Under the pieces are notes generated by a model that saw only the letters and a list, made by a program, of their open reading frames with translations, was not told the origin of the DNA and made no database searches. From positions 1 to 54,515 of the IMG/VR virus record IMGVR_UViG_3300006893_000010: 54,515 nucleotides of DNA; one strand, given 5' to 3'. Of the stretch, positions 587 through 54,087 are shown piece after piece. Position numbers and translations under genes: made by a program. The number at the start of each line of letters is the position of its first letter. Position 1 is the stretch's first letter. The DNA comes from a virus. Taxonomy: Duplodnaviria > Caudoviricetes.

Positions 587-815
587 AGTAATCCTATTCG
601 AACCCTCCCCCACCAACCTCCAAGGCGGGGTAGTGGTAGGTCAATATGGCGAGTATCTCTTAGTCGAGCGCCCGCAACCCAAGGAGCGCAAAGCATCCGC
701 GACGACGCCCCGTAAGCGCCGGACGAAGGCGGAACTGGCGGCGGCGGCAGGAGCCACATCCAAGCCGAACGCGAAGCCTCAGCCCGCGACGGCGTTCCCA
801 CCGGCGGTGGCGTAA
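558..815 (+). CDS. hypothetical protein with a basic, low-complexity C-terminus
   Basis: TAATG coupling to the next gene; upstream AAGAGAG. Confidence 0.6.
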   Translation: MATHRNRYVKVILFEPSPTNLQGGVVVGQYGEYLLVERPQPKERKASATTPRKRRTKAELAAAAGATSKPNAKPQPATAFPPAVA

Positions 816-1858
816 TGGCGCGCTCAGGACTCGTGTACGGTGACACTGGAACATTCAAGACGACCGCCATCGCTCACCTCGCGCGCTACATCGCCGAGCG
901 CACCGGCAAGGCCACGCTCCTGTTCAGCGCCGACGGCGGCGGCTGGGGACCGTGCCAGGAGGAGATCGAGGCGGGGATGATCCGCCCCTATCGCTGTGAC
1001 ACGGCGGTGATCCCGCTCCCTATCCTCCGCAAAGTGTCTCAGGGGTATTGGCCGTCGAACCCGGAGCAAACGGACATCTCGCAAGTAGACTTCATCCCCG
1101 TGAACTGGAACGAGGTCGGCGGTATCGCGGTCGAAGGCGTCACCTCCATCGGCACCATGCTAATGCGTCACCTCGCGGACAAGAATCTGAAGACCGGCGA
1201 GGAAGCCACCTCTCCGTTCCGTATGCCGATTCGCGTGGACGGTCAAGTCCGGGAGGAGACTTTCGCGGGGAACTCACGCGGGCACTACGCCTTCTGCCAA
1301 AACCAGCTCTACGGCCTTATCATGAACTTCGGCTCGCTCCCTGTGGAATACTTCCTTCTCACAGGCCACGACAAAAAGACGGAGGACGGCGACCGGCAGA
1401 CGGTCGGCGGCGTCTCAGCTCCAGGGAAGGCCATCTCGGCCCTCATCCCGACATGGATCGGCGATTGCATCCACGCGCAGGACTACCAGGTGGAGCGCAC
1501 GACGCAGATGCAGAAGATGGGTGGTAAGCCGGGAGAGATGGAAGTCGTATCGACCATCGACACGGTATGCCGCTACTACTTCAAGAAGCACCGCGATCCG
1601 GTCACCGGGATCGTCTACCCCGCGAAGCCGCGCGTGACGCATGGCGCGGTCGCCAAGCTCGACAAGATCTACCCGGACGGATTCTTCGTGCCGACGCCGG
1701 ACCACGGATTCGACGACTACCTGCGGAATCTGGATAAGCTGGCAGTGGAGTCGGGGAGCAACGAGAGCCTTAAAGGATGGCGTGAACGTGCCGACTCCAA
1801 ACTTGGACGCGGCAGGGTGACAGCGCCCACACCCACAGAGTTAACCGCAACAAAATAA
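815..1858 (+). CDS. P-loop ATPase, Sak4-like/AAA_24 single-strand annealing protein
   Basis: N-terminal Walker A GDTGTFKT, Walker B-like IAVEG, LLTGH motif; sits directly before an SSB-like gene. Confidence 0.7.
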   Translation: MARSGLVYGDTGTFKTTAIAHLARYIAERTGKATLLFSADGGGWGPCQEEIEAGMIRPYRCDTAVIPLPILRKVSQGYWPSNPEQTDISQVDFIPVNWNEVGGIAVEGVTSIGTMLMRHLADKNLKTGEEATSPFRMPIRVDGQVREETFAGNSRGHYAFCQNQLYGLIMNFGSLPVEYFLLTGHDKKTEDGDRQTVGGVSAPGKAISALIPTWIGDCIHAQDYQVERTTQMQKMGGKPGEMEVVSTIDTVCRYYFKKHRDPVTGIVYPAKPRVTHGAVAKLDKIYPDGFFVPTPDHGFDDYLRNLDKLAVESGSNESLKGWRERADSKLGRGRVTAPTPTELTATK

Positions 1859-1871
1859 AAAGGAGAATATC

Positions 1872-2639
1872 ATGGCTGGAGAATTCGGAGTAGTCACGTA
1901 TGAGCACGACGCTGCTGCACCTGTTGACGCTCAGCCCTCACCCGGCGAGCCGCAACAGCTAATCGACCCCAACGACCCTCGACTCACCTCGGAAGTCATC
2001 ACCGTGAATCCCGACGCGGATGCGTATGCGGTCCTGCCGCCGCTCCCCGACGGCAAATGGCGCGCCAAGGCCAAGCAGGTGGATATCAAGGACGACAAGG
2101 GCCAGCCCCAACGCTACGCCGTCTTCTCGCGCGCCAAGATGGCCAACGGAGCGCCCTTCTTCGCCACCAATATCGAATACTCGATCATCGACCATTCGGG
2201 CGAGTTCGATGGCGTCCGGCTGACCGACTACTGGGTTAAGACTCTGGTGGACGCTCGCAAGGGCACGTCGCAGGCGGCTACGATCACCGGCAAGCTGGGC
2301 GGCAAGGTTCCGGCTAGCGGCAACCAGAAGACCTACATGGACGCCCTGCTGGCTACGTTGGCCTCGGAGCCGGAACTCATATGGGAGACGGCTTGGTCGG
2401 CGGAGTGCCAGCACTGCCAGGAGGTAGCGAAGAAGAAGGGCGACCGCGCTCCGCGACCGTTCCTGCAAGGTATGCACCGCTTTCCTACGACCAAGGTTCC
2501 GGGGGTACACGACCCGATGGTCAAGTGTACGGGATGCGGGCAGATGGTGCGGGCGCAGGCTCGGCTGGTGGCTCCGTTCTCGCTGAAGGAAGCGCAGCCG
2601 ACGCGTGGGACGGGAACGACGCAGAAGAAGCCTGCTTAG
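1872..2639 (+). CDS. putative ssDNA-binding protein (DUF669-like) with Zn-ribbon
   Basis: AGGAG RBS; PLPDGKW motif followed by beta strands; CxxC..CxxC; position after the Sak4-like gene. Confidence 0.5.
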   Translation: MAGEFGVVTYEHDAAAPVDAQPSPGEPQQLIDPNDPRLTSEVITVNPDADAYAVLPPLPDGKWRAKAKQVDIKDDKGQPQRYAVFSRAKMANGAPFFATNIEYSIIDHSGEFDGVRLTDYWVKTLVDARKGTSQAATITGKLGGKVPASGNQKTYMDALLATLASEPELIWETAWSAECQHCQEVAKKKGDRAPRPFLQGMHRFPTTKVPGVHDPMVKCTGCGQMVRAQARLVAPFSLKEAQPTRGTGTTQKKPA

Positions 2640-3114: not shown

Positions 3115-3432
3115 ATGGGCCGCCGTGCTCCCATCGTCGTCCCTACGCGATGCTTCCACGGACATAAACTAACCGAGTTCACCACCGTGTGGGACTCCAG
3201 GAGAGCATGGCGATGTCGGATATGCAAGAACAGAGCGAACCGGAAGTGGAGGCAACGGAGGAAGTCGAAGCAGGTGCTGGCACATCAGTGGATGCACTGG
3301 GCGACGAAACGCAAAGCGCAGCGGCAGCCGAACCTACTATCCCTTGTGAGTTTACCTGCGGGGTTGCAGGTTCGGGGAAGACATGGTACTGGCGCGAGCG
3401 TATCGCCGCGGACCCCTCCGACGGAATCCTAG
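3115..3432 (+). CDS. HNH-associated Zn-binding-like protein overlapping the helicase start
   Basis: TRCFHGH...RCRIC motif, like the C-terminal domain of phage HNH proteins; ATG 1 nt after the previous stop. Confidence 0.4.
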   Translation: MGRRAPIVVPTRCFHGHKLTEFTTVWDSRRAWRCRICKNRANRKWRQRRKSKQVLAHQWMHWATKRKAQRQPNLLSLVSLPAGLQVRGRHGTGASVSPRTPPTES

Positions 3433-4589
3433 CCGCCACAACCGGGATCGCTGCGGTCAACCTCGGTACGACTACTCTTAACTCCCTGCTCAAGTTTTTC
3501 GACACGGATTCCCTCCGCGACGCCTATCTCAACGGCTCCCTCGTCCGTCGGCTGAAAGAGATCCGCGAGGACTACCGCCGCATCGTGATCGACGAAGTGT
3601 CGATGATGGACGGCGACCAACTCGGGATACTGGTCCGCGCGGCGCTGGAATGTAACTCCTGGCTGTCGCCGAAGCACGCCCCGCCTCTGGGACTCACACT
3701 TGTCGGAGACTTCGCGCAACTCCCTCCCGTTCGCGCCAAGTGGGCCTTCGAGTCGGACGAGTGGTGGCGCTTCGAGGCCGCGACGACGCGCCTGACGAAG
3801 GTGTGGAGACAAGGCGCGGGATCGTTCTTGGATGCGTTGAACATGACGCGATCTGGAGACGGCAGTGGTGCCGCCGAGTTATTGTCACAGCAGGGCCTTG
3901 AATGGCATTCCTACTTGGATACTAATTTCGATGGTACCACTATCGTAAGTAAAAATGACCAAGTGGATCGGTATAACGGGATGGCCCTAGACCGTCTCCC
4001 TGGCGCGACCTTTACTCTCTTGAATCGCCGATGGGGCAAGCAGCGCGGCGAGTGGAAGCAGGTGCCGGATCGAGTGACGCTAAAGGTCGGTGCGTATGTG
4101 ATGCTGCTCGCGAACGCATACGACGACGAAGGCGACATGCTTTACGCCAACGGAGATTGCGGTCATATTGTATCGTGGCTCGGCGGTACGTTGGGCGTTG
4201 AGTTAGTGCGTAACGGTGTGACGGTAGACGTATATAAGATACGTAGAGACGTTGGACCTAAGGACAAGCCTGCCTCGTGGGACAAGACGATGGGGCACGG
4301 CGAGTGGCTCCCGCGACCGCACTGGATGCCGGACAAGAAGCGGTTCGTAGAGGGACAGGTGGAGATGTGGCCTATACGGCTGGCGTATGCGTCTACCGTG
4401 CATCGCAGCCAAGGACTAAGTTTGGATCGTGTGCAATTTGATTGTCGTGATCATTTCGCAGGCCAGCCGGCGATGTGCTACGTCGCAATGTCTAGGGCTA
4501 GAACCCTACAAGGCTTACGCATGGTGGGGCAACGAGAACGGTTCATTCGTCAATGCAACATAGATCCTCGTGTCAGGCCGTGGCTATGA
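3207..4589 (+). CDS. Pif1/RecD-like superfamily 1B DNA helicase
   Basis: GVAGSGKT, ATTGIAA, IDEVSM, GDFAQLPPV, LTKVWRQ, LAYASTVHRSQGLSL, YVAMSRA; start chosen after GGAG. Confidence 0.93.
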   Translation: MAMSDMQEQSEPEVEATEEVEAGAGTSVDALGDETQSAAAAEPTIPCEFTCGVAGSGKTWYWRERIAADPSDGILAATTGIAAVNLGTTTLNSLLKFFDTDSLRDAYLNGSLVRRLKEIREDYRRIVIDEVSMMDGDQLGILVRAALECNSWLSPKHAPPLGLTLVGDFAQLPPVRAKWAFESDEWWRFEAATTRLTKVWRQGAGSFLDALNMTRSGDGSGAAELLSQQGLEWHSYLDTNFDGTTIVSKNDQVDRYNGMALDRLPGATFTLLNRRWGKQRGEWKQVPDRVTLKVGAYVMLLANAYDDEGDMLYANGDCGHIVSWLGGTLGVELVRNGVTVDVYKIRRDVGPKDKPASWDKTMGHGEWLPRPHWMPDKKRFVEGQVEMWPIRLAYASTVHRSQGLSLDRVQFDCRDHFAGQPAMCYVAMSRARTLQGLRMVGQRERFIRQCNIDPRVRPWL

Positions 4590-4663
4590 GGGCCAAACCC
4601 TCATCCTGTGATGGCTGTTACTCTCACGGGACCGTGGACAGGCGGGCAGTATGTTGGGTATAA
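4586..4663 (+). pseudogene. truncated remnant of the original DNA polymerase 5' end
   Basis: ATGA-coupled to the helicase; MRAKPSSCDGCYSHGT parallels the polymerase N-terminus MARSKPKSCEGCACYNHGS. Confidence 0.65.
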
Positions 4664-4664
4664 T
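4635..4664 (+). promoter_or_regulatory. promoter of the homing endonuclease
   Basis: TGGACA, 18 nt spacer, TATAAT; ATG follows at 4671. Confidence 0.55.
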
Positions 4665-4670
4665 ACAGCC

Positions 4671-5225
4671 ATGACCAAGAAGGAATATCAAGACGGGCTG
4701 TTCGCAACCAGAACTAGCGCAGGCATTCGCGCTAAACAAGATTTAGATGCATACTTGGCGGGCTTCTTTGACGGCGAGGGACACATATCTATGCGTCGCG
4801 ATCCGCGTCGACCTTGGGCGGTGTATGTAGAAGTAGGTGCTACTCAAGTGTGTCGAGGGCCGCTAGAGTTACTAGTCAAGGCATACGGCGGAAACATCAT
4901 CAAGAAGGCTGTGGGTAAGAACAACGTTCAAGTCTGTTACGCGTGGAAGTGTGGAGAAAGCAAGAATGCTTTTTGGGCGCTATGGCGTATGCTTCCGTGG
5001 TTGATCGTCAAGCGAGCTAAGGCACGAGCTGCAGTTATAGTTCTACAAAACCGTCCACTTAATTGTGTGGGCGGCCAGATATCCTCCCACCAGAAGATGG
5101 CAATCACGAAAGCATTAAAGGGGTTTCACGTCATAAAGGCAGAGGAGAAGCGGTGGCAAGGTCGAAACCAAAATCGTGTGAAGGCTGCGCTTGCTACAAC
5201 CATGGATCAGATTTCTCAGCCGTAA
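4671..5225 (+). mobile_element. free-standing LAGLIDADG homing endonuclease gene
   Basis: YLAGFFDGEGHI motif, ...PWLIVKR; lower GC than the flanks. Confidence 0.9.
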
Positions 5226-8011
5226 CTGGAACTGGTTCGTTGGGTGTAATGATAGTCGCAGAGGCTTCAGGAGAACAGGAAGCAAGAGAACAGCGTCCGC
5301 TTGTTGAGTACGCGCCCGCTGGTTCCCTCCTCGAACGCACGTTCAAACGGATGGGCTACTCCCGCGCCCAGTTCTCCCTCACCAATACCCTCCGTTGTCG
5401 TCCCGCCCGCAACTGGCTGTCCGGCGCGCCGTGGGAGTTCTCTGCGCTCAATCATTGCCGCCCGAACCTCGATGCCGCGATCCGCGACCGGCGACCGCGA
5501 GCGATCCTGGCGCTAGGAGATACGGCGACACGGGAGCTGACCGGCGAGGCAGGGGAGGCTAGAGGCGTATCTCACCTTTGCGGCTATGTCCTTCCGACCT
5601 ATCAGCAAGTACCGGAGCCATGTACCGAGTCTGACTGTGTGATGACGGGCGCGGCGCGGCCCGATTGCTTCATGTGCGGTGGTAGTGGGATCAGCGGGAC
5701 CCAGAATGCACCAGCACAGAACGCAATCCCTGTGATACCAGCGTTCCACCCAAGTTTTATCAGGCGTGGCGCGGCTCACCTACAAGGGATATTCGCTCGC
5801 CATCTACAACGCGCCGTCAACGTCGCTGCGGGCAAGGACCACGAATGGATATGGGGCATCGACCCTGAAAGGAGTGAGACGTATGGATCCCTCAGATACT
5901 CGCTACATCCTAGCCTTGACGAGGCTGAACAATACACACAACGAATTGAGGCGGGATCAGGATACGTTGTCAGCTACGATATTGAGACTTTCGAGAGCGC
6001 AAGCCTCGATGAAGATGCTAGAGATGGATTTACCGACACTCGAATACGCCTCGTTCAATTCTCAACTGGCGCAGGTGGTGGTATTGCTTTCCCATGGGAG
6101 GGCAGGTATCGAGAACTTGCTGGACGAATTCTGCGTACCCCCAACGTCAAGTGCGGCCACAACCTCTGGCTCTTCGACAACAAAGTCCTCGAAGCCTGCG
6201 GCCTCCGCGAGGGACTGGACCTCACGCCGCGAGGAGTGATCCACGACACCCTCCAGATGTTCCACCACTGGCAGCCGGACCTCCCCGCCCATCTCCAGTT
6301 CGCAGCGCAGTTCGTGCAGTTCCCGTTCCCATGGAAGCATCTCGCCGCGACGAACCTGGAGTTCTATGGTTGCGTAGACGTGGACGCTACGCTACGCCTC
6401 TATGAGTTCCTGCTCGGAGCGCTCAAGAAGGACGGAATCTACGACTCTCCGTATGACGCGCAGGGGGATTGCGTCGGTGGGTATGTCGGCCAGGTGCAAC
6501 AGGTGAGGCCGATCCTGGCCGCGATGGAGCGCCGTGGACTCCCCGTGGACGACGCTGAGCGGCTGAAGCTGGACGGCGAGTTCGACCTGGCGCAACAGGA
6601 GCTGGGCAACAATCTCGACAGGAGGTTCCCCGATGAAGCACGTTCAATACATCCTAAACTTGGTTACAAGCGCGATCCAGTGGATACTGGTGGTCTCGTG
6701 CGCCACGATTTTGTGGTTGCTGGCATTGGTGGTGATGGTAATCCTTGTGATACCAGCGTATCTCGATGGTGTCGGCTGGAACCCTTCCTCCCGAACTCCG
6801 GGAAGCAACTCATCCGGTACATGAAGGTCAAGGGACACAAAGTCCCTAAGTCCCGTGAGCAGAACGCTGATGGCAACGACAAAGACACGACGGGGAAGAA
6901 AGAGTTAGTCCGCCTCGCGCATCGCACCGGCGACGACTTCTACCTCAAGGTGATCGAGTATCGGGAGTTGGGTAAGGCGCGCGGGACATACATTGAGGGA
7001 TTTAAGCCCCACGATGATGGATTCGTGCACACGACGTTCACCTTTGATACAGGCATAGGCCAGCTATCGTCCCGAAATCCAAACATTCAGAATTTTTTGA
7101 AGCATGGCCGTCTAGCCAAGGCCGTCCGGCGTATGATCGCCGCTAAGGAGGGATATGTCCTCACCGAATGGGACTACAAGTCGTGCCACGTTCTCACGCT
7201 GGGATTTCTGGCTGAGGATGCTAATTATATCCGTTGCGCCCGCATTGACATGCATTCCATTGTTACCGGACACAAGCTCGGACTGTGGCACGCTCTTGAA
7301 CTCCTCCGAGACCACGACGACGCCTACATCCGCACCAAGTGTCAATGGCTGAAGTCCAATCCCGAGTGGAAGCACATCCGCGACGCTCGTATGAAGCACG
7401 CTATCCTCGGCATCGGCAACGGGCTGAAGGCGCGCGGCCTCTACGAGAAGCACATGGAGGATTTCAGCGGAGTCAAGGAGGCACAGTCGTTCCTCGATGT
7501 CGTCGAAGCGTTGTTCCCACGCGTCTTCGAGTGGCACAAGACGGTGCAGCAGCGCGCACACGACCAACAATTCCAGCGTACTGAATACGGCCACATGCGG
7601 AGGTTCTATGAGGTATTCCGGTGGGATTATAAAAAGGCTGCTTACTCGCATGGGGATCAGGCGGAAGAAGCCATCTCCTATCACCTTTCTAATATTGCGT
7701 TTGGTTACATCCGAGAGCATATTAAGCTACTGGAGAGAGCTGGTCTCAACAAGCGCTATGGGCTGTGCAACAACGTACACGATTCTCTCGTCTTCCACTT
7801 CCCAGCAACCTTACTTGACGAGCACGTGCGTGAGGTATATCCACTCCTCGTCCGACCATCGGCGGTGCTGCGACATCCCACGATAGCGCCGGACGGGCTG
7901 TGGCTCGACGCGGAATGCAACGCTGGGCGTGACTGGAGTTCGATGGATGAGGTTCCGATTGCTAAGACTATGGCACAGGTGGCGGATACGCCACTCGTTG
8001 CGGGGGCGTAA
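5153..8011 (+). CDS. family A DNA polymerase with N-terminal uracil-DNA-glycosylase-like domain and 3'-5' exonuclease
   Basis: UDG-like IVAEASG, TNTLRCRP, FHPSF; exonuclease YDIET, GHN..FD, YGCVD; polymerase LSSRNPNIQN, motif A WDY, motif C VHDS; GTG start after AGAGGAG. Confidence 0.9.
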   Translation: MARSKPKSCEGCACYNHGSDFSAVTGTGSLGVMIVAEASGEQEAREQRPLVEYAPAGSLLERTFKRMGYSRAQFSLTNTLRCRPARNWLSGAPWEFSALNHCRPNLDAAIRDRRPRAILALGDTATRELTGEAGEARGVSHLCGYVLPTYQQVPEPCTESDCVMTGAARPDCFMCGGSGISGTQNAPAQNAIPVIPAFHPSFIRRGAAHLQGIFARHLQRAVNVAAGKDHEWIWGIDPERSETYGSLRYSLHPSLDEAEQYTQRIEAGSGYVVSYDIETFESASLDEDARDGFTDTRIRLVQFSTGAGGGIAFPWEGRYRELAGRILRTPNVKCGHNLWLFDNKVLEACGLREGLDLTPRGVIHDTLQMFHHWQPDLPAHLQFAAQFVQFPFPWKHLAATNLEFYGCVDVDATLRLYEFLLGALKKDGIYDSPYDAQGDCVGGYVGQVQQVRPILAAMERRGLPVDDAERLKLDGEFDLAQQELGNNLDRRFPDEARSIHPKLGYKRDPVDTGGLVRHDFVVAGIGGDGNPCDTSVSRWCRLEPFLPNSGKQLIRYMKVKGHKVPKSREQNADGNDKDTTGKKELVRLAHRTGDDFYLKVIEYRELGKARGTYIEGFKPHDDGFVHTTFTFDTGIGQLSSRNPNIQNFLKHGRLAKAVRRMIAAKEGYVLTEWDYKSCHVLTLGFLAEDANYIRCARIDMHSIVTGHKLGLWHALELLRDHDDAYIRTKCQWLKSNPEWKHIRDARMKHAILGIGNGLKARGLYEKHMEDFSGVKEAQSFLDVVEALFPRVFEWHKTVQQRAHDQQFQRTEYGHMRRFYEVFRWDYKKAAYSHGDQAEEAISYHLSNIAFGYIREHIKLLERAGLNKRYGLCNNVHDSLVFHFPATLLDEHVREVYPLLVRPSAVLRHPTIAPDGLWLDAECNAGRDWSSMDEVPIAKTMAQVADTPLVAGA

Positions 8012-11439: not shown

Positions 11440-14400
11440 TCAGTTTACCGAATCCACTGTCAGCATTCTCTCCGTCATCGAGTTCGAGGCGCTAGCGGAA
11501 GAGAATGCCCCGGTGATTTGCAGGAATAATTGCACTGTCGAATCAATCGCGCTGGATACCGCCGTATTGGTGTCGGCGTATACGGAGTCGGCGGCAGTCG
11601 TAGCCGCGCCCAGATCAATCAACAGAGAGCCGTGGGCCTCGTACTTGGAACTCGCGCCTGCGGTTTGTGTGCCGGAATTGAGTGACAACTGGATCGCATT
11701 GTTGGTAACAGCTAGGCTACCGAGCGCTCCTGACTGAATAGCCGCTAGTGTGATGACAGTCCCGCTTCCACATCCCGATACCGTGCAGAGTTTTGCGCTC
11801 ATCGTCATCTGGGAAGTAGAGAGCGCGGGCGTGGAGTAAATCCCATCCGCTTTGATTCGCAGTACGCGATTGAGACTGTTCAGTGCCCCGCCTGGAATGG
11901 TGCAGGCCATCAATAATTGATCCGTGGCAACGTTCGCTGAGACCGTGACTGGGGTGACGTTGACGCAACTATATTGTCCTGAATATATCCCATTGGGGCC
12001 TGTTAGTGTTCCAGTCAGGATTATATTTGCTGTCTTAATAGTTCCGGCTTTACTGCCAAGAGCGCCTGTGCCCACGTCCAGCACGCCCGCCGCATCTCTA
12101 GTCAGCGATAAGTCGCGCGCCGCTGCTGCACCATTCGAGAAACCAATGCCGCTTCCGTCCACTGAGGTTGTTCCGAACGCTAAATCGCTGGTGAGTACAT
12201 CAACACCGCTGACTGTGGTAATAACGTTTGTGCCGCCCGAGTAAAATCCGTTGGTGCCTCCACCGATTCTTATTGGTAAGGCCCCGGTCGATCCAGAAGG
12301 GGTACGGATAGCTCCTGTTGAAGTAAGATTGGTTACGGTGACCGTACCCGTACCCAAATTACTGTTGCCGTCGGTGACAGAAATCGCCAGTGGGTTAGGG
12401 TTGTGGGTTACGTCGAGTCCCACGCTGTCGATTTGTAAGGCGGCATAAGTGCTAAAAACACCAATGTTTCCACTCGGAGACCCGATGTGTATGGCATAGG
12501 CGTTACTGACCGTACCCCCTCCCTTGTTGTATAGAATTGGCCAATAGCCATTCAGGGTAGTGATAGCACCAGTGTTTCCAGGGTTGAGCGTTCCAGTGTC
12601 GGAGGTCGAACCGCTCATAATGCTTACGGTGCCGTTTCCTAAGTTGTAAGCCTCACTAGCCGCTCCTATGCAATCAGCAACAGTTCCCGATCCATTGTGA
12701 TCGCATTCCGCGTGTAGTCCGGCTAATTCGCTCGTATAGTTATGAGTCGAGGCAGGAAGAATTGCGATGTTCGCGTTAACGTTGAAATCCTCTACCGCAG
12801 AATCTACAGACGGTTGGCCTAAGTAAGTGGAAAAGTTATAAGGCAGTGTGAACGGGCCGCTCGAACCTCCTACTGTGTCGGTGTTGGTGTTCTCGGAATA
12901 AATCAAGGCAGGGGATTGAATCGTGCCATAATAATTAACGTTAGTCGTCGGCCCTATAGTCAAGCTACGTGCGGGTAGTTGTACGGTCGAGCCGGTAGCT
13001 TTGTTCCAGACATGAAATGCGTCACCCGCAAATGATCCCCCATCGTTGTATTGTATCTGGGTAGTAGAACCTCCAGGGGTGCCGCCGCTCGGTGTGCCGA
13101 ATCCTGTGCCGTCGGCCTTGACATAGCTCCCTGCTGACGCACCAGGAATGATGAGACAGCCGCTAGTATTGGTCACAGGGGCCGTGTTTCCGTCTCCCGC
13201 AAGGCCAGTGTCGTCGAAGGTCAAGAACGATGTACCCCCGCCGCCTTGATCAGTTGCTAGAGCTGTTCCGATCTTCCCCTGCGTCGCTCCGCCAACTGTG
13301 CGATACACGTCAATCCCCCAAGCGCCACCAGTTGGATCAATGTGGACTTGGGGGTGATTCGTTCCATTTGGACTGGCATTGCCTAGATTCGTTGTGCCTG
13401 TGGTTGAAGCCGCCGAATGTCCGCATCCGCCTTCAGCAACCAGAACGTAAGTGTAGGTAGTTGACCCAGCCGTGCCGACATTGGTTACCGATGAACCCAC
13501 TCCAGAAAAGGCGGGGGCGGTGACCTGCGAAAACGTCAGGCCGGAAACGGAGGGTTGAATTCCCAGCGTGGGGGTAATCGTAAATCCATTGGGAGTTTTA
13601 TAGGTCAAGGCAAGCGTACTGCTTGAGTCCGTGACTTTGCCAACGCTCTTAAATGCGAATTGATCGAAAGCGGGAGTTGCATTTGACAACGACCTGACAA
13701 AGATGAGTCGAGATGATGGATAGGATACAGATCCCCCACTTGCGCCTCCGTTGGGTAGTAGCGCCCAATCGCTGCTGGTACCTGCCGCTGGGGCACTATT
13801 AGCGACTGGACCTGTCGGACCCAGAAAGGTCATATTCCGCGCAAATGCCTGATAGGTGAGCAGGAAACTTCCGACATTCCCGCTGTCACTGAGTTGATTG
13901 CCGCCGAGATCATAAACGGACGCAGCAGGGCCGTTTGTCCCGTTCGTGTCGTCTCCTAAGAGAGTGTTGTTGTGGATTGCTACTGCAATCCCGCCATTGC
14001 CGAAGTCGTTGCCCCACATAAGATATGCCCCGCCCATTGCATTGATGGGGTAGACGGCAGAGTCAATCTGAGGGAATCCTATTTGGTTATTATGAATGCT
14101 GCGCCAACACGCTTGAGCGCCGGAGGTTGCGCTATCTCCTAGGAACGCCCCCGACGTTTCTGCCGCGATGACATAAGAAATCTCAGCAAAGCAACCGTTT
14201 CCGGTTGAACCCTCGAAGAAGTTTGCCCCCCCGGATCCGAATTGAGAGAAACTACCGTTTCCTCCAATATGAGAGTGTGAAACCCTAACCGTTCCTTGAT
14301 CAACCTCGATTCCACGGTAGCAAGTGGTAATGTGACTTTCCTCGTCTATGTCAGTGGAGTCGGCAGTCAGATCGTTGACCCAAATTCCAATGCTGCCTGT

Positions 14401-15624
14401 GGCTTGCTGGCAATAGACCTGAACGTGATGGATGGCATAGCCTTCTTGATTAGGTCCACCATCGATCTTAAGTCCGTAGAAATTCGCTGGAGGGGAGACC
14501 GCGTTATAGGCACTGTACATATCCATTGACGAAAATGTATTCCTAGATGGAGTGTACCCACCACTTGCGCTATTAGTAACACGGATGTCGCCGATAAAAC
14601 TGGAGGCACAACCATCACCCTTGGCGGCAAACGTTCCTCCATGAAAGTAAGAGAATCCGGTATCGTCGATACGAATTAAACCGTCCGCTGTTCCGCCACA
14701 TCCGAATACCCTAGTTCCGCCTTGAATAGGACTGCCGGATTGTCCACCTTGTCCAAACGTTCCACCGAAATCAACCTCGGTAAATTGCTGCCCCTTGATT
14801 AGCCACTGGGAGGTGAGGCGAATGCTCGGGCAATTCTTAAAGCTAAGCGTTTTCCCGGTTATCCCGTCAATTACCGTCAAGGTGTTTAGCGCCGTAGAAG
14901 AGTCGGTAGCTCCTGTGCAATCCACTCCCGAAATGTCTCTTGCCTCAATCACTGGCTTGAGTTGATATACACAAGGAACTCCGATACCGTTAGAAGCGCA
15001 GACTGATCCTGCGGCTACTCCGGTAGGTAAGCTAGAGGATGTGTGACACGCTCCATCAGCGCCTAGATACTGTGTCCCGGAGCATGAGCCAAATAGCCCA
15101 ACCACGTCCGACGCAATCGTAGGCACAGTCACATTGAGCGTTGTTCGCTTTACGATCCCACTAGAGCCTGGATCATGTAGCCCACTGACACCACCAACGA
15201 TGGGTAATAGCGGCATCAAGGGATCGACGATGGATGATATATCCTGCGTCACTCCGGTGATCGTGATCAGGATATTGTTCTTGCAGTACGGCCCCGCGAG
15301 GTATCCTACCGCCGAGCAGATCGAGAATGCCCACTTCGATGGCCCTGGCGACACTGTGTTGATGTTATCCGCGAGGTTAACCGTGAACTTGCCGAAGGCG
15401 TCACAGGTGCCTTGCTGGCCTTGGAGCAGCGCGTCTGGGGAGTAGGGGCCAGCGCCAGGAGGGCCTTGCGGCACGAATATTACCGACCACTGGCAGTTGG
15501 CGTAGGTCGTGGGAGTCGAGTCTTGGATGGTAGCGGTCACGACGGTCGTGGGGGGAGGTTGCTGTGCGGCGATGGAAGTTATAGCCAGCAACACGAAGAT
15601 GGAGGCAATGCGGTATAGTTTCAT
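11440..15624 (-). CDS. large tail fibre/spike-like protein with signal peptide, beta-helix-like centre and FN3-like module
   Basis: Start MKLYRIASIFVLLAITSIAA-QQ; G/S/T/N-rich; GVDCTGATDSSTALN spike-type motif; GGSTTQIQYNDGGSFAG fibre motif. Confidence 0.7.
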   Translation of the reverse strand: MKLYRIASIFVLLAITSIAAQQPPPTTVVTATIQDSTPTTYANCQWSVIFVPQGPPGAGPYSPDALLQGQQGTCDAFGKFTVNLADNINTVSPGPSKWAFSICSAVGYLAGPYCKNNILITITGVTQDISSIVDPLMPLLPIVGGVSGLHDPGSSGIVKRTTLNVTVPTIASDVVGLFGSCSGTQYLGADGACHTSSSLPTGVAAGSVCASNGIGVPCVYQLKPVIEARDISGVDCTGATDSSTALNTLTVIDGITGKTLSFKNCPSIRLTSQWLIKGQQFTEVDFGGTFGQGGQSGSPIQGGTRVFGCGGTADGLIRIDDTGFSYFHGGTFAAKGDGCASSFIGDIRVTNSASGGYTPSRNTFSSMDMYSAYNAVSPPANFYGLKIDGGPNQEGYAIHHVQVYCQQATGSIGIWVNDLTADSTDIDEESHITTCYRGIEVDQGTVRVSHSHIGGNGSFSQFGSGGANFFEGSTGNGCFAEISYVIAAETSGAFLGDSATSGAQACWRSIHNNQIGFPQIDSAVYPINAMGGAYLMWGNDFGNGGIAVAIHNNTLLGDDTNGTNGPAASVYDLGGNQLSDSGNVGSFLLTYQAFARNMTFLGPTGPVANSAPAAGTSSDWALLPNGGASGGSVSYPSSRLIFVRSLSNATPAFDQFAFKSVGKVTDSSSTLALTYKTPNGFTITPTLGIQPSVSGLTFSQVTAPAFSGVGSSVTNVGTAGSTTYTYVLVAEGGCGHSAASTTGTTNLGNASPNGTNHPQVHIDPTGGAWGIDVYRTVGGATQGKIGTALATDQGGGGTSFLTFDDTGLAGDGNTAPVTNTSGCLIIPGASAGSYVKADGTGFGTPSGGTPGGSTTQIQYNDGGSFAGDAFHVWNKATGSTVQLPARSLTIGPTTNVNYYGTIQSPALIYSENTNTDTVGGSSGPFTLPYNFSTYLGQPSVDSAVEDFNVNANIAILPASTHNYTSELAGLHAECDHNGSGTVADCIGAASEAYNLGNGTVSIMSGSTSDTGTLNPGNTGAITTLNGYWPILYNKGGGTVSNAYAIHIGSPSGNIGVFSTYAALQIDSVGLDVTHNPNPLAISVTDGNSNLGTGTVTVTNLTSTGAIRTPSGSTGALPIRIGGGTNGFYSGGTNVITTVSGVDVLTSDLAFGTTSVDGSGIGFSNGAAAARDLSLTRDAAGVLDVGTGALGSKAGTIKTANIILTGTLTGPNGIYSGQYSCVNVTPVTVSANVATDQLLMACTIPGGALNSLNRVLRIKADGIYSTPALSTSQMTMSAKLCTVSGCGSGTVITLAAIQSGALGSLAVTNNAIQLSLNSGTQTAGASSKYEAHGSLLIDLGAATTAADSVYADTNTAVSSAIDSTVQLFLQITGAFSSASASNSMTERMLTVDSVN

Positions 15625-15626
15625 GG

Positions 15627-17453
15627 CTAATCCACGATCCAGTATTCCCAACACGTCTGCCCGGAAGTGGATGGCAGAGAAAAAGTAAAACTGACTCCGG
15701 TGGAAATCGCCGAAATCGTGACCGCCGAAGTCACCGCTGGAGCTACGCAGGTCGGAGCACTCGGCAAATTGCTCGCAAAACTTATCGGCTGTAAGAAGAT
15801 TCGACTGCCCGTCACTGCCGCCGAAGTGTTGACCGTGTAAGTAGTAGTTGTGGTAGGAACAACTACTGCTCCGGATGCGGCTGCACTACAGGCCGCCGGG
15901 GATACAGAGTTAACCGCGCAATTGGTGTTGGTGATTTCTTTCCCTAGCGTAACCGTGCCTGCCCCTAGGTTGGAGTTTCCAGCCGCCACGCTGATCGCCA
16001 AAGGAGCTGGATTCGCCGCGCCGCCTGGAGTTGGATCGTCAATCTGCAATCCGGCGTAGTGAGAGACTGTGCCCGCAAGTTGCGGACTGTAGACATGCAA
16101 TCCGTAGCCGTTCGTGGCTGTGTTGCTCCCGAATGTCGTAATGACGAACAGGCCGCCGTTGATCGTACCTACTGCTCCAGTCCCGGCGTTAAGTGTTCCA
16201 GCCTCGCCTGTGATCCCAGCCAACACGGTCGCAGGACTAACCGAGCCGAGTGCATAAGCCTCCCCAGAGCTTCCAATGCAGAGCGCTACCAATCCAGATC
16301 CATTGTGATCGCATTCTCCGTGTATGCCGGATAGTTCACTCGTATAGGCAGCTATCGAGGCTGGTTGAACTACGACCTGACCCGCTATGTCGAAAAGCTC
16401 AATCGCGGACGTAGAACTAGCTGTAAGGTAAGTCGAGAAATAATAGGGCCATGTAAACGGCCCTCGCGTCCCACCCGCTATGCCTGCGTTGGTGTTTTCG
16501 GCGTAGAATTGTGGAGTCGATTGTAAAGTGTTATAACCTATATTCGTATTTCCACCAAACGTAAGAGGGGGATTGAGGCCAGTGTTCCCTAGCACACCGT
16601 TCTGCGTCCCAAACGGTACAGCCGCCTTAGCGTGTAAGGCGTACTGCATGGGAGTAACTCCAGAACTAGCATAGTTAGTGGTAGAAATTGTGATAGTGGT
16701 GCCTGCTGCTGCTTGCACGATCTGGGTTCCGAGCCAACCGCTTTTCGTGCCGGTCAGACCTATCGTGTTTCCGGTTAAGCCGCTGGGCGTAAGCGGAACT
16801 GCAGTTTGTGCTATTCCGGTGTCTGCGTCGGTCCAATTTACGTTACACACAGGTAAGGTAGAAGTAGAGGTGGCGGCCTGAGTCAGTACGACGTAGCAGG
16901 TAACTAGATATGATCCAGCTCCACCCGTAGGTACAGCATAGAGATTGGCGCTGGATATAGCTGCTGCCTGCGCCGATAAATCCACTGTGCCTACGATAAC
17001 GCTATTAATCGGCCCCCCGCCAGATACACTGATCTGACAACTGACAGTAGGCGACGTACCACCACTTAGCGTAGCTGGAACACAACCAATGAAACGATAG
17101 GCTGTTAAGTTAACACTTCTACCACCAACGATGCTAGTAGTGTCTATTTGTGTCCACGTCACATTGTCTAGCGATCCCATGAGGTTGATGGCAAGGCCAG
17201 TGGGAGAGCCAGTGGTTGAGACCTGCCACGTGAATACGGTAGGAAGTTGTCCACCACTAGTCAGTAGGTTGAAGGAGACGCAGCCACCAGCAAGGCCGGG
17301 GTTGACGCTAGTCGCGGTCGTGGTCGCGTTGCAGGATACGCCGACGCCGCCGGACGCTAGAGTTTGTGTGATCTGCGCGGCGCAAGGGATGGCCAACGAC
17401 AGCAGTAGGAGTGTCAGTAGCCATAGTCTTTTATTCATCATCGTAATCGTCAT
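15627..17453 (-). CDS. fibre/adhesin-like protein with signal peptide
   Basis: MNKRLWLLTLLLLSLAIPCAA-Q; shares an internal domain with 11440-15624. Confidence 0.65.
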   Translation of the reverse strand: MTITMMNKRLWLLTLLLLSLAIPCAAQITQTLASGGVGVSCNATTTATSVNPGLAGGCVSFNLLTSGGQLPTVFTWQVSTTGSPTGLAINLMGSLDNVTWTQIDTTSIVGGRSVNLTAYRFIGCVPATLSGGTSPTVSCQISVSGGGPINSVIVGTVDLSAQAAAISSANLYAVPTGGAGSYLVTCYVVLTQAATSTSTLPVCNVNWTDADTGIAQTAVPLTPSGLTGNTIGLTGTKSGWLGTQIVQAAAGTTITISTTNYASSGVTPMQYALHAKAAVPFGTQNGVLGNTGLNPPLTFGGNTNIGYNTLQSTPQFYAENTNAGIAGGTRGPFTWPYYFSTYLTASSTSAIELFDIAGQVVVQPASIAAYTSELSGIHGECDHNGSGLVALCIGSSGEAYALGSVSPATVLAGITGEAGTLNAGTGAVGTINGGLFVITTFGSNTATNGYGLHVYSPQLAGTVSHYAGLQIDDPTPGGAANPAPLAISVAAGNSNLGAGTVTLGKEITNTNCAVNSVSPAACSAAASGAVVVPTTTTTYTVNTSAAVTGSRIFLQPISFASNLPSAPTCVAPAVTSAVTISAISTGVSFTFSLPSTSGQTCWEYWIVD

Positions 17454-18994
17454 TGTCCTGTCTCCTGCGCTCGCTTGGCGGCTTCCATGAGTTGCTTCGA
17501 GAGAGACCAGTCGGGATGCTGGGCGCGGACGCGATCAAGGATGCCAGTGTCGCGGGCGGGATTAGCGGTATCGCGAAGGCGCTGGGCCTCGGGATCTCCC
17601 TTCCCAGTTGCTGCCTTCTGGACTCCACGTTGTGTAATCCTGTCGCCTATCTTGCGCCTCTCTTCGGCTACCATCTGCGTACTGGCGCGGCGCTCCACAG
17701 GGACCATATTCTGTCCTGGCTTTTGCGATTCCTTGGTCTTGCGTAGCCACTCTATGGGATCGACGGCGGTGGGAGTAGAGGATCGCACTGGCGCTACCTC
17801 TCGATTCTTCCCCGCTGACGCTAGTGCCTTCGACAGCGCTCCGCCCGCGGCTTCACCCGCATGCCCACCCGCCGACCCTAAGATGAGAGGATGCCCGACC
17901 TCCGTCCCCGCACCGTAGCCGAGCAGCCGTCCGCCAGCCTTCCCGACCGCGCGCATCGTCTTCCCGGACTGATACGTCTTCGCCATCTCCGCCTTGCCGC
18001 GGAGGTAGGTGGCGTCGAGGCCGTGTGGCTTTAACGCCTTCGCGGTGTCGTCGCCTATCGCCGAGCGCATCTTCTTCATCAGGCCGCCCATCTTGCCACC
18101 AGGATCGAGATCCCACGGAATCTTCGCACCGAGGGATTGCTCGAAGTTGCGGGCGGATTGATACGTCAGCGGATTCAGCTCCGCGCCACGGTCGATGGAC
18201 GCTCCCGGCTGACCCTCGACAGGCTCTACTCCCGGCTTCATCTTCGACTCGATCATGGCGATAAAGTCGGTCACCGGCTTCGGCACCGTGAATCCGTGCT
18301 TGCCGAGTTCCTCCGCCTTCTTGGCCCACTTATACGCAGCGGTATGATCGACTGGGATGTCCTGCGCGGCGGCGTCCACGCGATCCAGCAGCGTCTTCCC
18401 ACGCGTCTCTGCGCCCATGATCGACCCTGGCTTGGTCGGGTTGGCCTCGATTTCGCGTGGCGTCCCTTGTGCCGCACGACCGCCTATCATCTTCCCTAGC
18501 TTGCCAAATGTGAGCAGGTTGCTCATTGTGCGCGGCACCTGCATCGCTATGGCCTCCTTACCATACCCACTATGGTAGAGATCGCTGATCGCGCTGGGTA
18601 CCTTCCCGATATCCTTCAATGACTCTAGCGTCCCCTGCACCATGCGCTTGATGGGGACTGTGCCGGGGCCGAGGGCGTTCAGGACTTCCTCGCCCATACC
18701 CTCTGGTGGCTTGCCCATCTGATACACGGACTTTAGCGCGTCGCCCGCGCCGCCCGCGAGTTCCCCTCCCATCCACTTGGCTACGCCCATCTTCGAGGGG
18801 TCGATGCCGGTAGATAGAGCTAAGGTAGACTTACCGGCTTGGTCGGAGTGGGAAGTGTCTGCCGCGCCTGCTACGTCGTAATCAGGATGGGTCCGCAGGA
18901 ACGCGCCGGACTGGTGCGACGGGATGGTATAGAACTTCCCATCCGGTCCCTTGAGTCGGACGCGATCATCGACGGCTTGTGTCTGTGGTGGCAT
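17450..18994 (-). CDS. putative DNA ejection (internal virion) protein
   Basis: Helical, G/A/K-rich, with a glycine-zipper segment; last of four genes after the nozzle gene. Confidence 0.55.
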   Translation of the reverse strand: MPPQTQAVDDRVRLKGPDGKFYTIPSHQSGAFLRTHPDYDVAGAADTSHSDQAGKSTLALSTGIDPSKMGVAKWMGGELAGGAGDALKSVYQMGKPPEGMGEEVLNALGPGTVPIKRMVQGTLESLKDIGKVPSAISDLYHSGYGKEAIAMQVPRTMSNLLTFGKLGKMIGGRAAQGTPREIEANPTKPGSIMGAETRGKTLLDRVDAAAQDIPVDHTAAYKWAKKAEELGKHGFTVPKPVTDFIAMIESKMKPGVEPVEGQPGASIDRGAELNPLTYQSARNFEQSLGAKIPWDLDPGGKMGGLMKKMRSAIGDDTAKALKPHGLDATYLRGKAEMAKTYQSGKTMRAVGKAGGRLLGYGAGTEVGHPLILGSAGGHAGEAAGGALSKALASAGKNREVAPVRSSTPTAVDPIEWLRKTKESQKPGQNMVPVERRASTQMVAEERRKIGDRITQRGVQKAATGKGDPEAQRLRDTANPARDTGILDRVRAQHPDWSLSKQLMEAAKRAQETGQ

Positions 18995-20005: not shown

Positions 20006-20008
20006 AAG

Positions 20009-20584: not shown

Positions 20585-20585
20585 A

Positions 20586-20924: not shown

Positions 20925-20925
20925 A

Positions 20926-25177: not shown

Positions 25178-25197
25178 AATTCCTCTGTTCTACTGTT

Positions 25198-25536: not shown

Positions 25537-25548
25537 AAAGTCCTCATT

Positions 25549-50596: not shown

Positions 50597-50721
50597 TTGG
50601 CTCCGGGAACCTAATAGGGGGCTAGGTTCCCGGCCCAACCCCCTTGGATAGTACCTAGCGGCACAGGGACGCTGCCGCGTCCTTGGGGATAAACATCCCA
50701 TATCCACACTCAAAATGTCAA

Positions 50722-52023: not shown

Positions 52024-52352
52024 AACGATTCCTTGTGATCGAATGTGACACGGCCTACTTGACCGTATTAGTGCATGAAGTGACGCAGGAGTTCACTGCG
52101 GACGACGATCCTGGCAGAGGCGTAGCGTATCATCGTGGCCCTAGTGAGTCCTCGCTGATCTGCGACGGCCTCGGCTCGAAGTTCTACGGCAAGCTGGACG
52201 CGTTGCTGGTGACGCGGGATAGGATCGAGGACGCCATGCCGATAGAGCCTGAGCCACCTGCGCCCAAGGTCCACCCTGAGCCGGAGGATATCTTGGAGAC
52301 TCCTGCACATGTCGCCGACTTCCTCGCCGCGCCGATCACGGAGGGGCCATGA
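52020..52352 (+). CDS. hypothetical protein
   Basis: ATGA-coupled start at 52020. Confidence 0.55.
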   Translation: MKRFLVIECDTAYLTVLVHEVTQEFTADDDPGRGVAYHRGPSESSLICDGLGSKFYGKLDALLVTRDRIEDAMPIEPEPPAPKVHPEPEDILETPAHVADFLAAPITEGP

Positions 52353-52407
52353 TCGCCCACCTAGTCGCGGCGCTGATCGAACTGCTGGTGGGACGGAGGA
52401 GACGGTG

Positions 52408-54087
52408 ATGACGAAGGTAATCTACACGGATCGTTCTAGGACTGAGAGCCACCAGAGGTGCGCGAGGCTGAGGTTCTTGGAGTATCACCAAAACGGGATT
52501 GGCATTCAGCCGATGAATAAGCCTCTCCCTCTCGTCGTCGGAGGCTCTGTCCACGTCGGACTCGAACATCTCCTGCTAGGCCGGACGGAGGACCAAGCCG
52601 TCGCCGCGGCCCTCTCAGACTTCTCCCTTCACCGTTCCGCCCTTGCCCTCGACACCACCGAGACCGCAGCGATGGCCGTCACTCCTATCGACGGCTTCGA
52701 CGTTCAGATGGCGGCGCAGGCGCGGGAGCTGGGCATGGACCCCGGCGATCCTCAGTTGACCGAGTTGTTCCAGCGGCAACGGAATGCGGCGGCGGAGTTC
52801 GATGGGTGGCTGTTCAACGAACAGGCTAGCTTGGTGGAGGCGCTCGTCAGAGCCTACAGTAGGCGTAGGCTGCGTCCGTTGCTGGAAGAGTTCGAGGTGT
52901 TGGAGGTGGAGAGGGAGGGGGATTGGTCGCTCGCAAGTGTGGCGCTTGAGACTCCTAAGTGGGTGTGTGTGGACTGTGGTAAGTATGTTGATAAGGGCAA
53001 CGAATACGGGAAGTCTCCCTGCTGTATAGCTGAATTAGCAGAGTACGAGAGTGCCGAAATCCGCTTCATGTCCCGCCCCGACGCCCTCCTGCGATCCCGC
53101 GCCGACAACTCCCTCTACATCCTCTCCTACAAGACAGCCGCGACGTGGGACATCCGCAAAGCTAGAGACGCCGAGCACGACATGCAGGGACTCTCAGAGG
53201 GAGTAGAGGTAGAGCGGCGGCTGGGGGAGTGGTGGCAACAGATACAGGCGGTAAAGGCGTTAGGTAGGGATGGAGACTTAGCTAAAACGGACGACATTCC
53301 AAAGGCTACATGGGCTTACCTCCGCGATCTCTCCGCCCCTCCTCGCATCCTCGGTATCCGCTACGAATACCTCCTCAAAGGCTACCGCAGTGAAGACAAG
53401 GATCTCTCCGCGCGGTTCGGCATCAAGGTGTGGGCGCAGAAGTCCCATCTTATACGGAAGTACGTCGCTACCAGCGTCCCTAGCCGCGGCGCGTCAGCGT
53501 ATAGCGTGGGAGATGAGTGTTGGTCTTACGACTGGATCAAGGACGACGGCTCCACCTCGAAACTGGCGTGGCAAAATTGGAAAAGTCGCCCAGTGTGGGA
53601 GGACGGCACCGTCAAGGCGTGGATCGACGCCCTGGACGACACGCAGATGGCGATGTCGGCCTACGACTCTACGACCGGAGCCGAGCCGCGGGAGATGGGG
53701 TATAAGGGAGCGGCGCAGGCGCTAGGCTATACCGCGACACATCCGCTGGACGAGGTGTTTCCAGCGCCGATGATCGTCTACCGGAGCGATGATCAACTCC
53801 GGGACTGGATTGAGCAGGTGGAGGCGCAGGAGACGCGGGTTGTGGAGGCGGTAGCGCGGGTCGAGGCGGCTACGGATGAGGGCGAGAAGCGTCACCTGCT
53901 AAATGTGTTAATGCCGATGTCGAGGCGAGCATGCTCCTACCCCACCGAGTGCGCGTTTACAAAGCTATGCTACGGCGGGGATGATGTCAGGAGATCGCCG
54001 CTGGAGTCAGGGCTGTACCGTGCCAGAGAGCCTCATCACACGCCGGAGAGAAGGTCGCATTCCGCCAAGCAGAAACGGACTACATGA
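52408..54087 (+). CDS. PD-(D/E)XK / Cas4-like recombination exonuclease
   Basis: N-terminal C.R...Y, GGSVH..LE, RPDAL...SYKT, C-terminal CSYPTECAFTKLC (1+3 Cys Fe-S pattern); GGAGGAG RBS. Confidence 0.75.
   Translation: MTKVIYTDRSRTESHQRCARLRFLEYHQNGIGIQPMNKPLPLVVGGSVHVGLEHLLLGRTEDQAVAAALSDFSLHRSALALDTTETAAMAVTPIDGFDVQMAAQARELGMDPGDPQLTELFQRQRNAAAEFDGWLFNEQASLVEALVRAYSRRRLRPLLEEFEVLEVEREGDWSLASVALETPKWVCVDCGKYVDKGNEYGKSPCCIAELAEYESAEIRFMSRPDALLRSRADNSLYILSYKTAATWDIRKARDAEHDMQGLSEGVEVERRLGEWWQQIQAVKALGRDGDLAKTDDIPKATWAYLRDLSAPPRILGIRYEYLLKGYRSEDKDLSARFGIKVWAQKSHLIRKYVATSVPSRGASAYSVGDECWSYDWIKDDGSTSKLAWQNWKSRPVWEDGTVKAWIDALDDTQMAMSAYDSTTGAEPREMGYKGAAQALGYTATHPLDEVFPAPMIVYRSDDQLRDWIEQVEAQETRVVEAVARVEAATDEGEKRHLLNVLMPMSRRACSYPTECAFTKLCYGGDDVRRSPLESGLYRAREPHHTPERRSHSAKQKRTT

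Follow-up and report, generated by a model that had tools for sequence, protein, structure and literature searches.

The uncultured viral metagenome record IMGVR_UViG_3300006893_000010 (linear, 54,515 bp; analysed at its full length and called the window below) encodes a fusion that joins a uracil-DNA glycosylase (UDG), a 3′-5′ exonuclease and a family A DNA polymerase, hereafter UDG-PolA. In this enzyme R668 and E710 (E. coli Pol I numbering, used for all residue equivalents), which textbooks treat as fixed in enzymes of the Pol I type, are replaced by Gln and His. E710 is the steric gate keeping out ribonucleotides, and R668 contacts the minor groove and the sugar. The same two residues occur in more than 250 homologues. 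These make up an extensive group within the Pol I family that seems not to have been described before, here called the Q/H clade. We consider it probable, with considerable room for doubt, that the Q/H enzyme is the only DNA polymerase of the phage, that its co-adapted pocket still makes DNA from deoxynucleoside triphosphates (dNTPs), and that primers come from elsewhere.

The active-site motifs are listed in Table 1. A phmmer comparison with KlenTaq paired IGQLSS with TGRLSS, DYKSCH with DYSQIE, AISYHLSN with AFNMPVQG and VHDS with VHDE. For motif B, MAFFT L-INS-i was used with E. coli Pol I, T7 gp5, N4 gp39, the SP-10 polymerase and 46 clade members as input, and with four more cultured phage PolAs in a second run; K758 was thereby aligned with K778, F762 with L782, G763 with G783, Y766 with N786 and G767 with G787. 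A motif B register shifted by four residues, obtained from a local alignment of the clade profile to Klenow that starts inside the motif, was rejected because Leu would fall on the invariant K758 and because it sits at the alignment edge, whereas the MAFFT register keeps K758, G763 and G767. A sequence-only reading of the window had proposed the changes R668Q, E710H, F762L, Y766N, N845S and Q849S, with the catalytic D705 and D882 kept. All of this was confirmed: the nucleotide positions match, both alignment methods agree, and aligning the protein with reference enzymes does not restore the canonical residues. The catalytic residues of family A, i.e. the Asp of motifs A and C (D704, D907), the Lys of motif B (K778) and the His of motif C (H906), are all in place. 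Absent are the Arg of the TGR motif (Q667), the steric-gate Glu (H709), the aromatic residue at B4 (N786) and the N845/Q849 pair (S872, S876). An aromatic residue is expected at B4 in family A (Y766; Phe in DpoZ). The Arg of the TGR motif is described as conserved across 19 PolA clusters (PMC10201439).

Two independent database searches gave 267 homologous proteins with identities down to ~32%, among which the changes are common and thus not private to the window. At the R668 site, Gln was counted in 253 of 262 rows; the E710 site has His in 257 of 259 (row P0176 shows Val or His at position 709, according to the overlapping hidden Markov model (HMM) stretch used) and the F762 site Leu in 234 of 255. 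The catalytic residues are nearly invariant (D704 259/259, K778 247/252, H906 254/256, D907 256/256). The remaining pocket positions vary: position 786 (Y766) has Asn in 117, Phe in 109, Leu in 25 and Tyr in 4 of 256 rows; position 872 (N845) Ala in 184 and Ser in 69 of 257; position 876 (Q849) Ala in 139, Ser in 80 and Gln in 30 of 257; and position 908 (E883) Ser in 186, Ala in 42 and Glu in 12. Of the H/N/Q/S set, whose conservation in a clade had been named as a check, Gln and His stand, while Asn is typical of the window's subclade and Ser is a minority residue at both positions. Two large subclades can be distinguished, I665-C708-N786, to which the window belongs, and T665-F/Y708-F786. 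The three positions covary: 106 rows pair C708 with N786, 98 pair F/Y708 with F786, 106 pair I665 with N786, and 96 pair T665 with F786.

Mean pairwise identity was 0.39 for palm and fingers, 0.41 for the exonuclease and 0.44 for the UDG domain. Since palm and fingers are conserved like the other two domains, the protein is taken to be a working enzyme and not a decaying one. The earlier view that the changes are concerted was borne out by this and by the retention of Gln and His in so many homologues; judged by the alignment, the substitutions are conserved beyond chance. Many homologues (P0033, P0062, P0065, P0096, P0128, P0237 and others) are 1200–1700 amino acids (aa) long and match the query in 3–7 separate stretches, a pattern pointing to inteins or other inserted elements within the polymerase; one long homologue has a match to Pfam LAGLIDADG_2 (PF03161).

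The 982-aa protein has a Pfam UDG match at residues 59–237 (8.2e-16) and a DNA_pol_A match (PF00476) at residues 573–929 with 86.9 bits against a cut-off of 34.3, and it matches phrog_17 ‘DNA polymerase’ (3e-56). Among the window open reading frames (ORFs) scanned with Pfam and PHROGs it is the sole polymerase match. The database gene call for the same polymerase has 920 aa, compared with 982 aa when read from the TTG codon. An AlphaFold2 (AF2) model built with 46 homologues reached a predicted local distance difference test score (pLDDT) of 88.6 and a predicted template modelling score (pTM) of 0.86. Foldseek found Klenow 1kfs (E 3e-24, template modelling score (TM) by target 0.75) as well as Bst and KlenTaq (0.77–0.81), with E values from ~1e-22 to 3e-24. 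By the PF00476 cut-off and the Klenow-like fold, the protein is a member of family A.

Family-4 UDGs are defined by motif A (GE.xG..E) and motif B (HPS/A). The window protein shows both motifs, the four iron-sulfur (Fe-S) cysteines and the profile match, the clade profile matching PDB family-4 UDGs down to 2.6e-32. More than 94% of the clade rows keep the Fe-S cysteines and motifs A and B (C39 184/185, C42 185/187, E67 204/214, N108 219/223, C112 211/223, C132 219/224, H229 214/222). The exonuclease residues are similarly retained (D306 225/231, E308 228/230, D372 238/242, Y435 246/247, D439 246/247).

A second IMG/VR scan, with the F-subclade alignment as query, added 32 loci, of which 23 carry Gln and His, one Gln and Phe, one is truncated, and seven have canonical R, I-E, Y and Q at 24–28% identity. 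In a FastTree phylogeny of 53 rows, the 39 Q/H rows cluster together with support 100, next to a sister group made up of the seven R/E rows (99); the two combined have support 99, and the references lie outside. Gln and His are present in 39/39 Q/H rows of the tree, and Arg and Glu in 7/7 sister rows and 7/7 references. The phylogeny places a single origin of the Q/H signature in the clade ancestor. Under a strict rule just eight columns separate the Q/H from the R/E clade, R668 and E710 among them, and R773 is invariant only in the Q/H clade. The sister clade (L070, L072, L074, L075, L076, L079, L080) is the nearest group in the tree, and its match spans the full protein including the UDG end. 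In this group R668, I709-E710, Y766 and Q849 are all retained, in contrast to the window enzyme, and B3 is occupied by His or Tyr. N845 is already Ala there and motif C is mostly HDS, so N845A and the HDS motif are older than the Q/H change. The usual R754 position (K-4) lacks Arg in both the Q/H clade and the sister loci L070–L080; motif B reads Y-D-x-x-K-R in the sister group and R-D-x-x-x-K, with one extra residue, in the Q/H clade.

Cultured relatives are distant. A tblastn search of 50,697 phage records returned 75 records, all below 60% identity and none spanning 80% of the query, and the four nearest cultured PolAs fetched (RcMenchie, JP1, HJ05, PG28) have canonical motifs; in RcMenchie and JP1, genes for a DnaB-like helicase and for a primase lie on either side of the polymerase gene. 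A contig scan for the host gave just four short metagenome-assembled genome contigs from four different orders, so that no host can be named. In the literature searched, we came across no account of a PolA clade that naturally has Gln and His at these sites, although supplements such as the cluster lists of PMC10201439 were outside the search and might hold members. E710H, E615H and E480H were not mentioned there either, and mentions of R668Q mostly concerned an MMP-9 polymorphism and none a polymerase.

Fusions of UDG and PolA are already known from N4-, SPO1- and SP15-like phages, and a Leu at B3 has precedent. The SPO1- and SP15-like enzymes (SPO1, SP-10; SP-15, YerA41, phiLo; Czernecki et al. 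2023, PMC10201439; Missoury et al. 2026, PMC13697223) resemble that of the window in having an N-terminal family-4 UDG that keeps its catalytic motifs, followed by an active exonuclease and a family A polymerase, and they are the replicative-type polymerases of their phages, as the window enzyme would be. SP-10 also shares the HDS form of motif C, but its polymerase has 22% identity over 40% of the query. These enzymes differ in that TGR, the Glu steric gate, F/Y at B3-B4 and N..Q are all kept, as seen for SP-10 in the alignment and, for the gate of YerA41 and phiLo, in PMC13697223. SP15-like enzymes also have two large inserts and a C-terminal domain (1306 aa in YerA41 compared with 982 aa here) and go together with genes for thymidine modification, Pol beta and ligase. 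The N4-like enzyme (cluster 17, gp39) has the same UDG-exonuclease-PolA order, but its UDG catalytic residues are lost and B3 is Phe (PMC10201439). The window enzyme, with UDG motifs kept and Leu at B3, does not fit cluster 17; N4 in turn keeps the Arg and the Glu gate and lies on a long branch outside the Q/H and R/E clades. Klenow, Bst and KlenTaq share the fold and the catalytic Asp, Lys and His, but are only 17–20% identical; R668, E710, F762, Y766, N845, Q849 and E883 are all changed here, and the window enzyme adds the UDG domain.

The sequence-only reading had found no DnaG or archaeo-eukaryotic (AEP) primase, which HMM searches bore out in the window and 24 related complete genomes. 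No primase was found in Pfam and PHROG scans of the window ORFs. When the window and 12 relatives (eight with terminal repeats, ten rated 99–100% complete) were searched in all six frames, the HMMs DNAG_N, Toprim_2, Toprim_3, Prim-Pol, DNA_primase_S, D5_N and DnaB_C each gave 0/13, and all seven models were positive in control genomes. In 12 deeper Q/H genomes the models used were Toprim_2, Prim-Pol and DnaB_C, each with 0/12. The primase gp43 of N4 had zero matches in five Q/H and five sister genomes, in a search without positive control. At the HMM sensitivity used, these genomes do lack any recognisable primase or hexameric helicase. The link drawn between this lack and the pocket change found no support. 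Five sister genomes with the canonical pocket (R668, E710, Y766, Q849) gave 0/5 for Toprim_2, Prim-Pol and D5_N, and 0/5 over the cut-off for DnaB_C with one 11-bit match. The lack of a primase is therefore not special to the remodelled enzymes, and a causal link or self-priming is unsupported by it.

A comparison of six full genomes showed that just five genes are common to all, and these form a replication and recombination cassette (Table 1) that can be traced to ~30% PolA identity. Since the structural genes differ among relatives, the cassette moves between phages. RecB-like nuclease is present at 5/7 sister loci. The 592-aa nuclease was considered as a hidden primase and rejected: it has no Pfam, PHROG or PDB sequence match, and its motifs and Atlas assign it to the PD-(D/E)XK nucleases; hhalign of its profile against N4 gp43 and gp42 gave a short Cys-motif match and nothing more. 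The assignment of the 255-aa protein is less firm. VIA-align gave middling scores only (PrgE Z 6.1; RPA, PriB and the Pf3 SSB, a protein that binds single-stranded DNA, Z 3–3.4), and Atlas a 0.77 lead to DUF669 and nothing else. Neither a Pfam or PHROG match nor a Foldseek match at E ≤ 0.001 was found, and hhalign to the N4 SSB gave nothing. The profile of this OB-fold protein matches 14/25 Q/H loci and 0/7 sister loci. Within residues 30–60, D32, N34, D35, P36, L38, S40, E41, D50, Y52, A53 and P57 are invariant in 11 sequences; this motif lies in AlphaFold-predicted disorder, as peptides that dock to a partner protein typically do. A complex prediction for PolA residues 270–982 with the 255-aa protein scored 0.00 and gave no answer, speaking neither for nor against binding.

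Table 1. Positions of the UDG-PolA gene, its domains and active-site motifs, and of neighbouring genes in the window.
Feature	Position	Strand	Remarks
UDG-3′-5′ exonuclease-family A polymerase fusion gene (also in the cassette)	5063..8011	+	982 aa, TTG start; homology of relatives starts at ~residue 21
Family-4 UDG domain, ~residues 35–245	5165..5797	+	Four Fe-S cysteines; motif A AEASGEQE and motif B HPSF kept
3′-5′ exonuclease domain	5930..6472	+	Exo I–III intact: D306, E308, N367, D372, Y435, D439
‘TGR’ motif, IGQLSS	7055..7072	+	Q667 (nt 7061) in place of R668
Motif A, DYKSCH	7172..7189	+	Catalytic D704 (=D705) kept; H709 (nt 7187) for steric-gate E710; K706 for S707; C708 for I709
Motif B (end of O-helix), KHAILGIGNG	7394..7423	+	K778=K758, L782=F762 (nt 7406), N786=Y766 (nt 7418); AF2 helix 767–785
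Motif 6, AISYHLSN	7670..7693	+	S872=N845, S876=Q849
Motif C, VHDS	7775..7786	+	H906 (=H881) and D907 (=D882) kept; S908 for E883
PD-(D/E)XK (RecB/Cas4-like) nuclease, 592 aa (cassette gene 1)	52309..54087	+	1+3 Cys Fe-S signature; Atlas feature score 0.96 to PDDEXK_1 clusters, TM 0.63/0.78; in 5/5 genomes
Sak4-like/RecA-fold ATPase, 347 aa (cassette gene 2)	815..1858	+	phrog_124, 8.6e-08; in 5/5 compared genomes
OB-fold SSB-like protein, 255 aa (cassette gene 3)	1872..2639	+	Cys/His cluster; AF2 pLDDT 72.6; moderate evidence
SF1B (Dda/PIF1-like) helicase, 466 aa (cassette gene 4)	3189..4589	+	phrog_325, 2.6e-49; Pfam PIF1, 1.6e-11; in 5/5 compared genomes
LAGLIDADG-type homing endonuclease in the helicase-polymerase gap	4608..5225	+	phrog_5046, 5.5e-16; weak LAGLIDADG Pfam matches

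The following course of events would account for these observations. In the clade ancestor, R668 and E710 would have been exchanged together for Gln and His, whereby the charged Arg+/Glu− pair was lost. Accompanying changes would be Leu at F762, an aromatic residue or Cys at I709, usually Lys at S707, and the loss of Y766 and usually of Q849. Where the O-helix begins, an Arg that is now invariant would have been gained; positive residues added near the pocket would be K706 and R773. The window's subclade would then have acquired its linked trio, from Thr to Ile before the Gly, from F/Y708 to Cys and from F786 to Asn. With Leu, Phe or Asn in place of the aromatic sugar-packing residues, an alternative pocket could surround the nascent base pair in a functional proofreading polymerase. 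The imidazole of the His may serve as a planar steric gate, much as Tyr or Phe does in other polymerase families, and the minor groove would be checked less strictly or through a different set of contacts. The retained UDG motifs and the analogy with the solved SP15-like UDG-PolAs suggest a UDG domain that searches the template for uracil. Primers would most likely be provided by the host primase or by 3′ ends which the nuclease, the Sak4-like ATPase, the OB-fold protein and the SF1 helicase make; recombination-dependent initiation on a terminally redundant genome may be one such route. Activity and selectivity with dNTPs, the role of the His and the source of primers are inferred.

Several points weigh against this account. 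In human Pol gamma, synthesis is lost on the same Arg-to-Gln exchange (R853Q), and mutation of R668 in Klenow costs ~1300-fold in proficiency (PMC11122685). As Arg-to-Gln kills Pol gamma, activity of the Q/H enzyme implies compensation, for which the residues named above are candidates. The origin being single, the coupling of R-to-Q with E-to-H rests on one evolutionary event and not on repeated ones, and the tree was made with FastTree only, includes the motif columns and places the long-branched N4 and T7 with uncertainty. Since many ORFs in these genomes are without a family match, a highly diverged primase or an enzyme that modifies nucleotides could be hidden among them. The genome described as apparently complete is a record with a CheckV completeness of just 93%, and three glycosyltransferase-like genes had been reported at 39308–42990.

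These last genes bear on an alternative that we regard as unlikely, namely altered substrate use, as the sequence-only reading had proposed: the enzyme would take ribonucleoside triphosphates (rNTPs) or sugar- or base-modified dNTPs, or copy a modified or abasic template with a relaxed minor-groove check. The sugar-packing residues E710, F762, Y766 and I709 and the minor-groove readers R668, Q849 and N845 are indeed all changed, and the fused UDG looks active by its motifs. Gly or Ala at the steric gate admits rNTPs; His, however, is bulky and unlike such opened gates. For SP15-like phages, PMC13697223 describes that the UDG creates abasic sites which the polymerase must bypass, but also that the enzymes use 5hm-dUTP with a canonical gate. 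Other phages with UDG-PolA have hypermodified thymidine, and SPO1- and SP15-like phages carry thymidine-modification genes. In contrast, Thymidylat_synt (ThyA-like) and Adenylsucc_synt (PurZ) were each found in 0/13 genomes. This and the restriction of the shared genes to five replication and recombination genes both argue against a phage-made special nucleotide, since no phage-encoded nucleotide pathway accompanies the signature. Glycosyltransferase-like genes and a methyltransferase domain in the window would favour altered substrate use: upstream of the terminase, the region 39308–42990 encodes 510 aa ending in a Methyltransf_24 domain and, as a second protein, 395 aa assigned to phrog_1574. 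Of the glycosyltransferase and methyltransferase cassette that the sequence-only reading had seen there, the methyltransferase domain was recovered, but the 395-aa glycosyltransferase-like gene is present in 1/5 relatives and the methyltransferase gene in 0/5; these genes are not conserved among relatives.

It is likewise improbable, in our estimate, that the enzyme is no replicase and that host DnaB, DnaG and Pol III copy the genome, with the cassette as a recombination, repair or gap-filling module and UDG-PolA in a Pol I-like role. This would agree with the 25 Q/H genomes having no hexameric helicase or primase match, with the fused repair glycosylase and with the RecB-like nuclease, the Sak4-like annealing ATPase, the SSB-like protein and the SF1 helicase as cassette partners. 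However, N4 has the same kinds of neighbours (SF1 helicase, exonuclease, Sak4-like protein and SSB) in a replicative module, though with the primase gp43 added, and the SP15-like UDG-PolAs are replicative (PMC13697223). Moreover, the cassette alone is kept across otherwise unrelated 55–65 kb phages, as expected of an essential replication core.

Self-priming, by which the polymerase alone or with the OB-fold protein starts chains de novo like CcPol with MP, would explain the missing primase, and we give it only a slim chance. Precedents of PolA with OB-fold primases exist, some with a full exonuclease domain (PMC7581432, PMC10061031), and the CcPol-MP system of SCCmec (Bebel et al. 2020; Rice 2023) resembles the window's cassette as a mobile module with a family A polymerase near an OB-fold protein and a helicase. 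The OB-fold gene of the window lies in the same cassette two genes upstream of the polymerase, and no primase is detectable. Yet the sister genomes with canonical R/E/Y/Q have no primase match either, and the OB-fold profile has no match in 7/7 sister and 11/25 Q/H loci, six of these 11 having ~9 kb or more of upstream flank. CcPol keeps E710 and F762, so that the precedent does not involve this pocket change. The known pairs have truncated N-termini, compared with the complete exonuclease and UDG N-terminus here, belong to Bacillota mobile elements and use a different helicase type; the CcPol-MP OB-fold gene is located between polymerase and helicase, whereas that of the window is upstream of the helicase. 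Similarly doubtful is the broader idea that the Q/H pocket belongs to a primase-independent system in which the polymerase, perhaps with the OB-fold protein docked via its conserved disordered N-terminal motif, binds the initiating nucleotide and begins chains by itself, or takes ribonucleotides for the first steps. Decay or an alignment or sequencing artefact is very improbable: the changed residues do cripple canonical enzymes when mutated (PMC11122685), but the 982-codon frame is open, more than 250 homologues extend to 32% identity, the catalytic residues are intact and in conservation the polymerase domain equals the other two.

Some further features of the window were noted. The homing endonuclease gene lies outside the cassette and runs into the first 160 nt of the polymerase ORF, whose first ~20 residues have no counterpart in relatives. 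Because tblastn of 17 related loci gave zero matches to it, the gene is regarded as a recent insertion. The contig ends (1–80 and 54436–54515) carry G-runs and an A-run (poly-G/poly-A tails) and look like assembly or sequencing artefacts rather than genuine termini; no terminal repeat was found in the record, in contrast to the direct terminal repeats of 8/12 relatives. A 240-aa ORF at 48269–48991 contains an 8-residue unit repeated ~six times in near-identical form and has no family match. The counter-oriented 405-aa ORF in the early region (49496–50713, minus strand), also outside the cassette, had been suggested to be a Rep-like protein; Pfam and PHROG give no match, and only G001 has it (65% identity). 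Most large late genes at 11440–29420 on the minus strand (1404, 871, 769, 608, 525 and 514 aa) are without Pfam or PHROG match, and a 413-aa late protein has a weak SU10 adaptor match (25.5 bits, below the cut-off of 27) that hints at a podovirus-like tail.

The interest of these findings lies in the enzymology of a rewired pocket and in a cassette without primase, not in a demonstrated new function. With the large natural Q/H clade, a ready-made experiment is available on second-site changes that rebuild the network of primer end, sugar and catalytic loop, and the clade may yield polymerases with unusual sugar or minor-groove tolerance. A mobile cassette without recognisable primase or hexameric helicase raises the question of how these phages prime DNA synthesis. 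If the primase-independent system were true, the five-gene mobile cassette would be a self-sufficient replisome that needs neither of the two.

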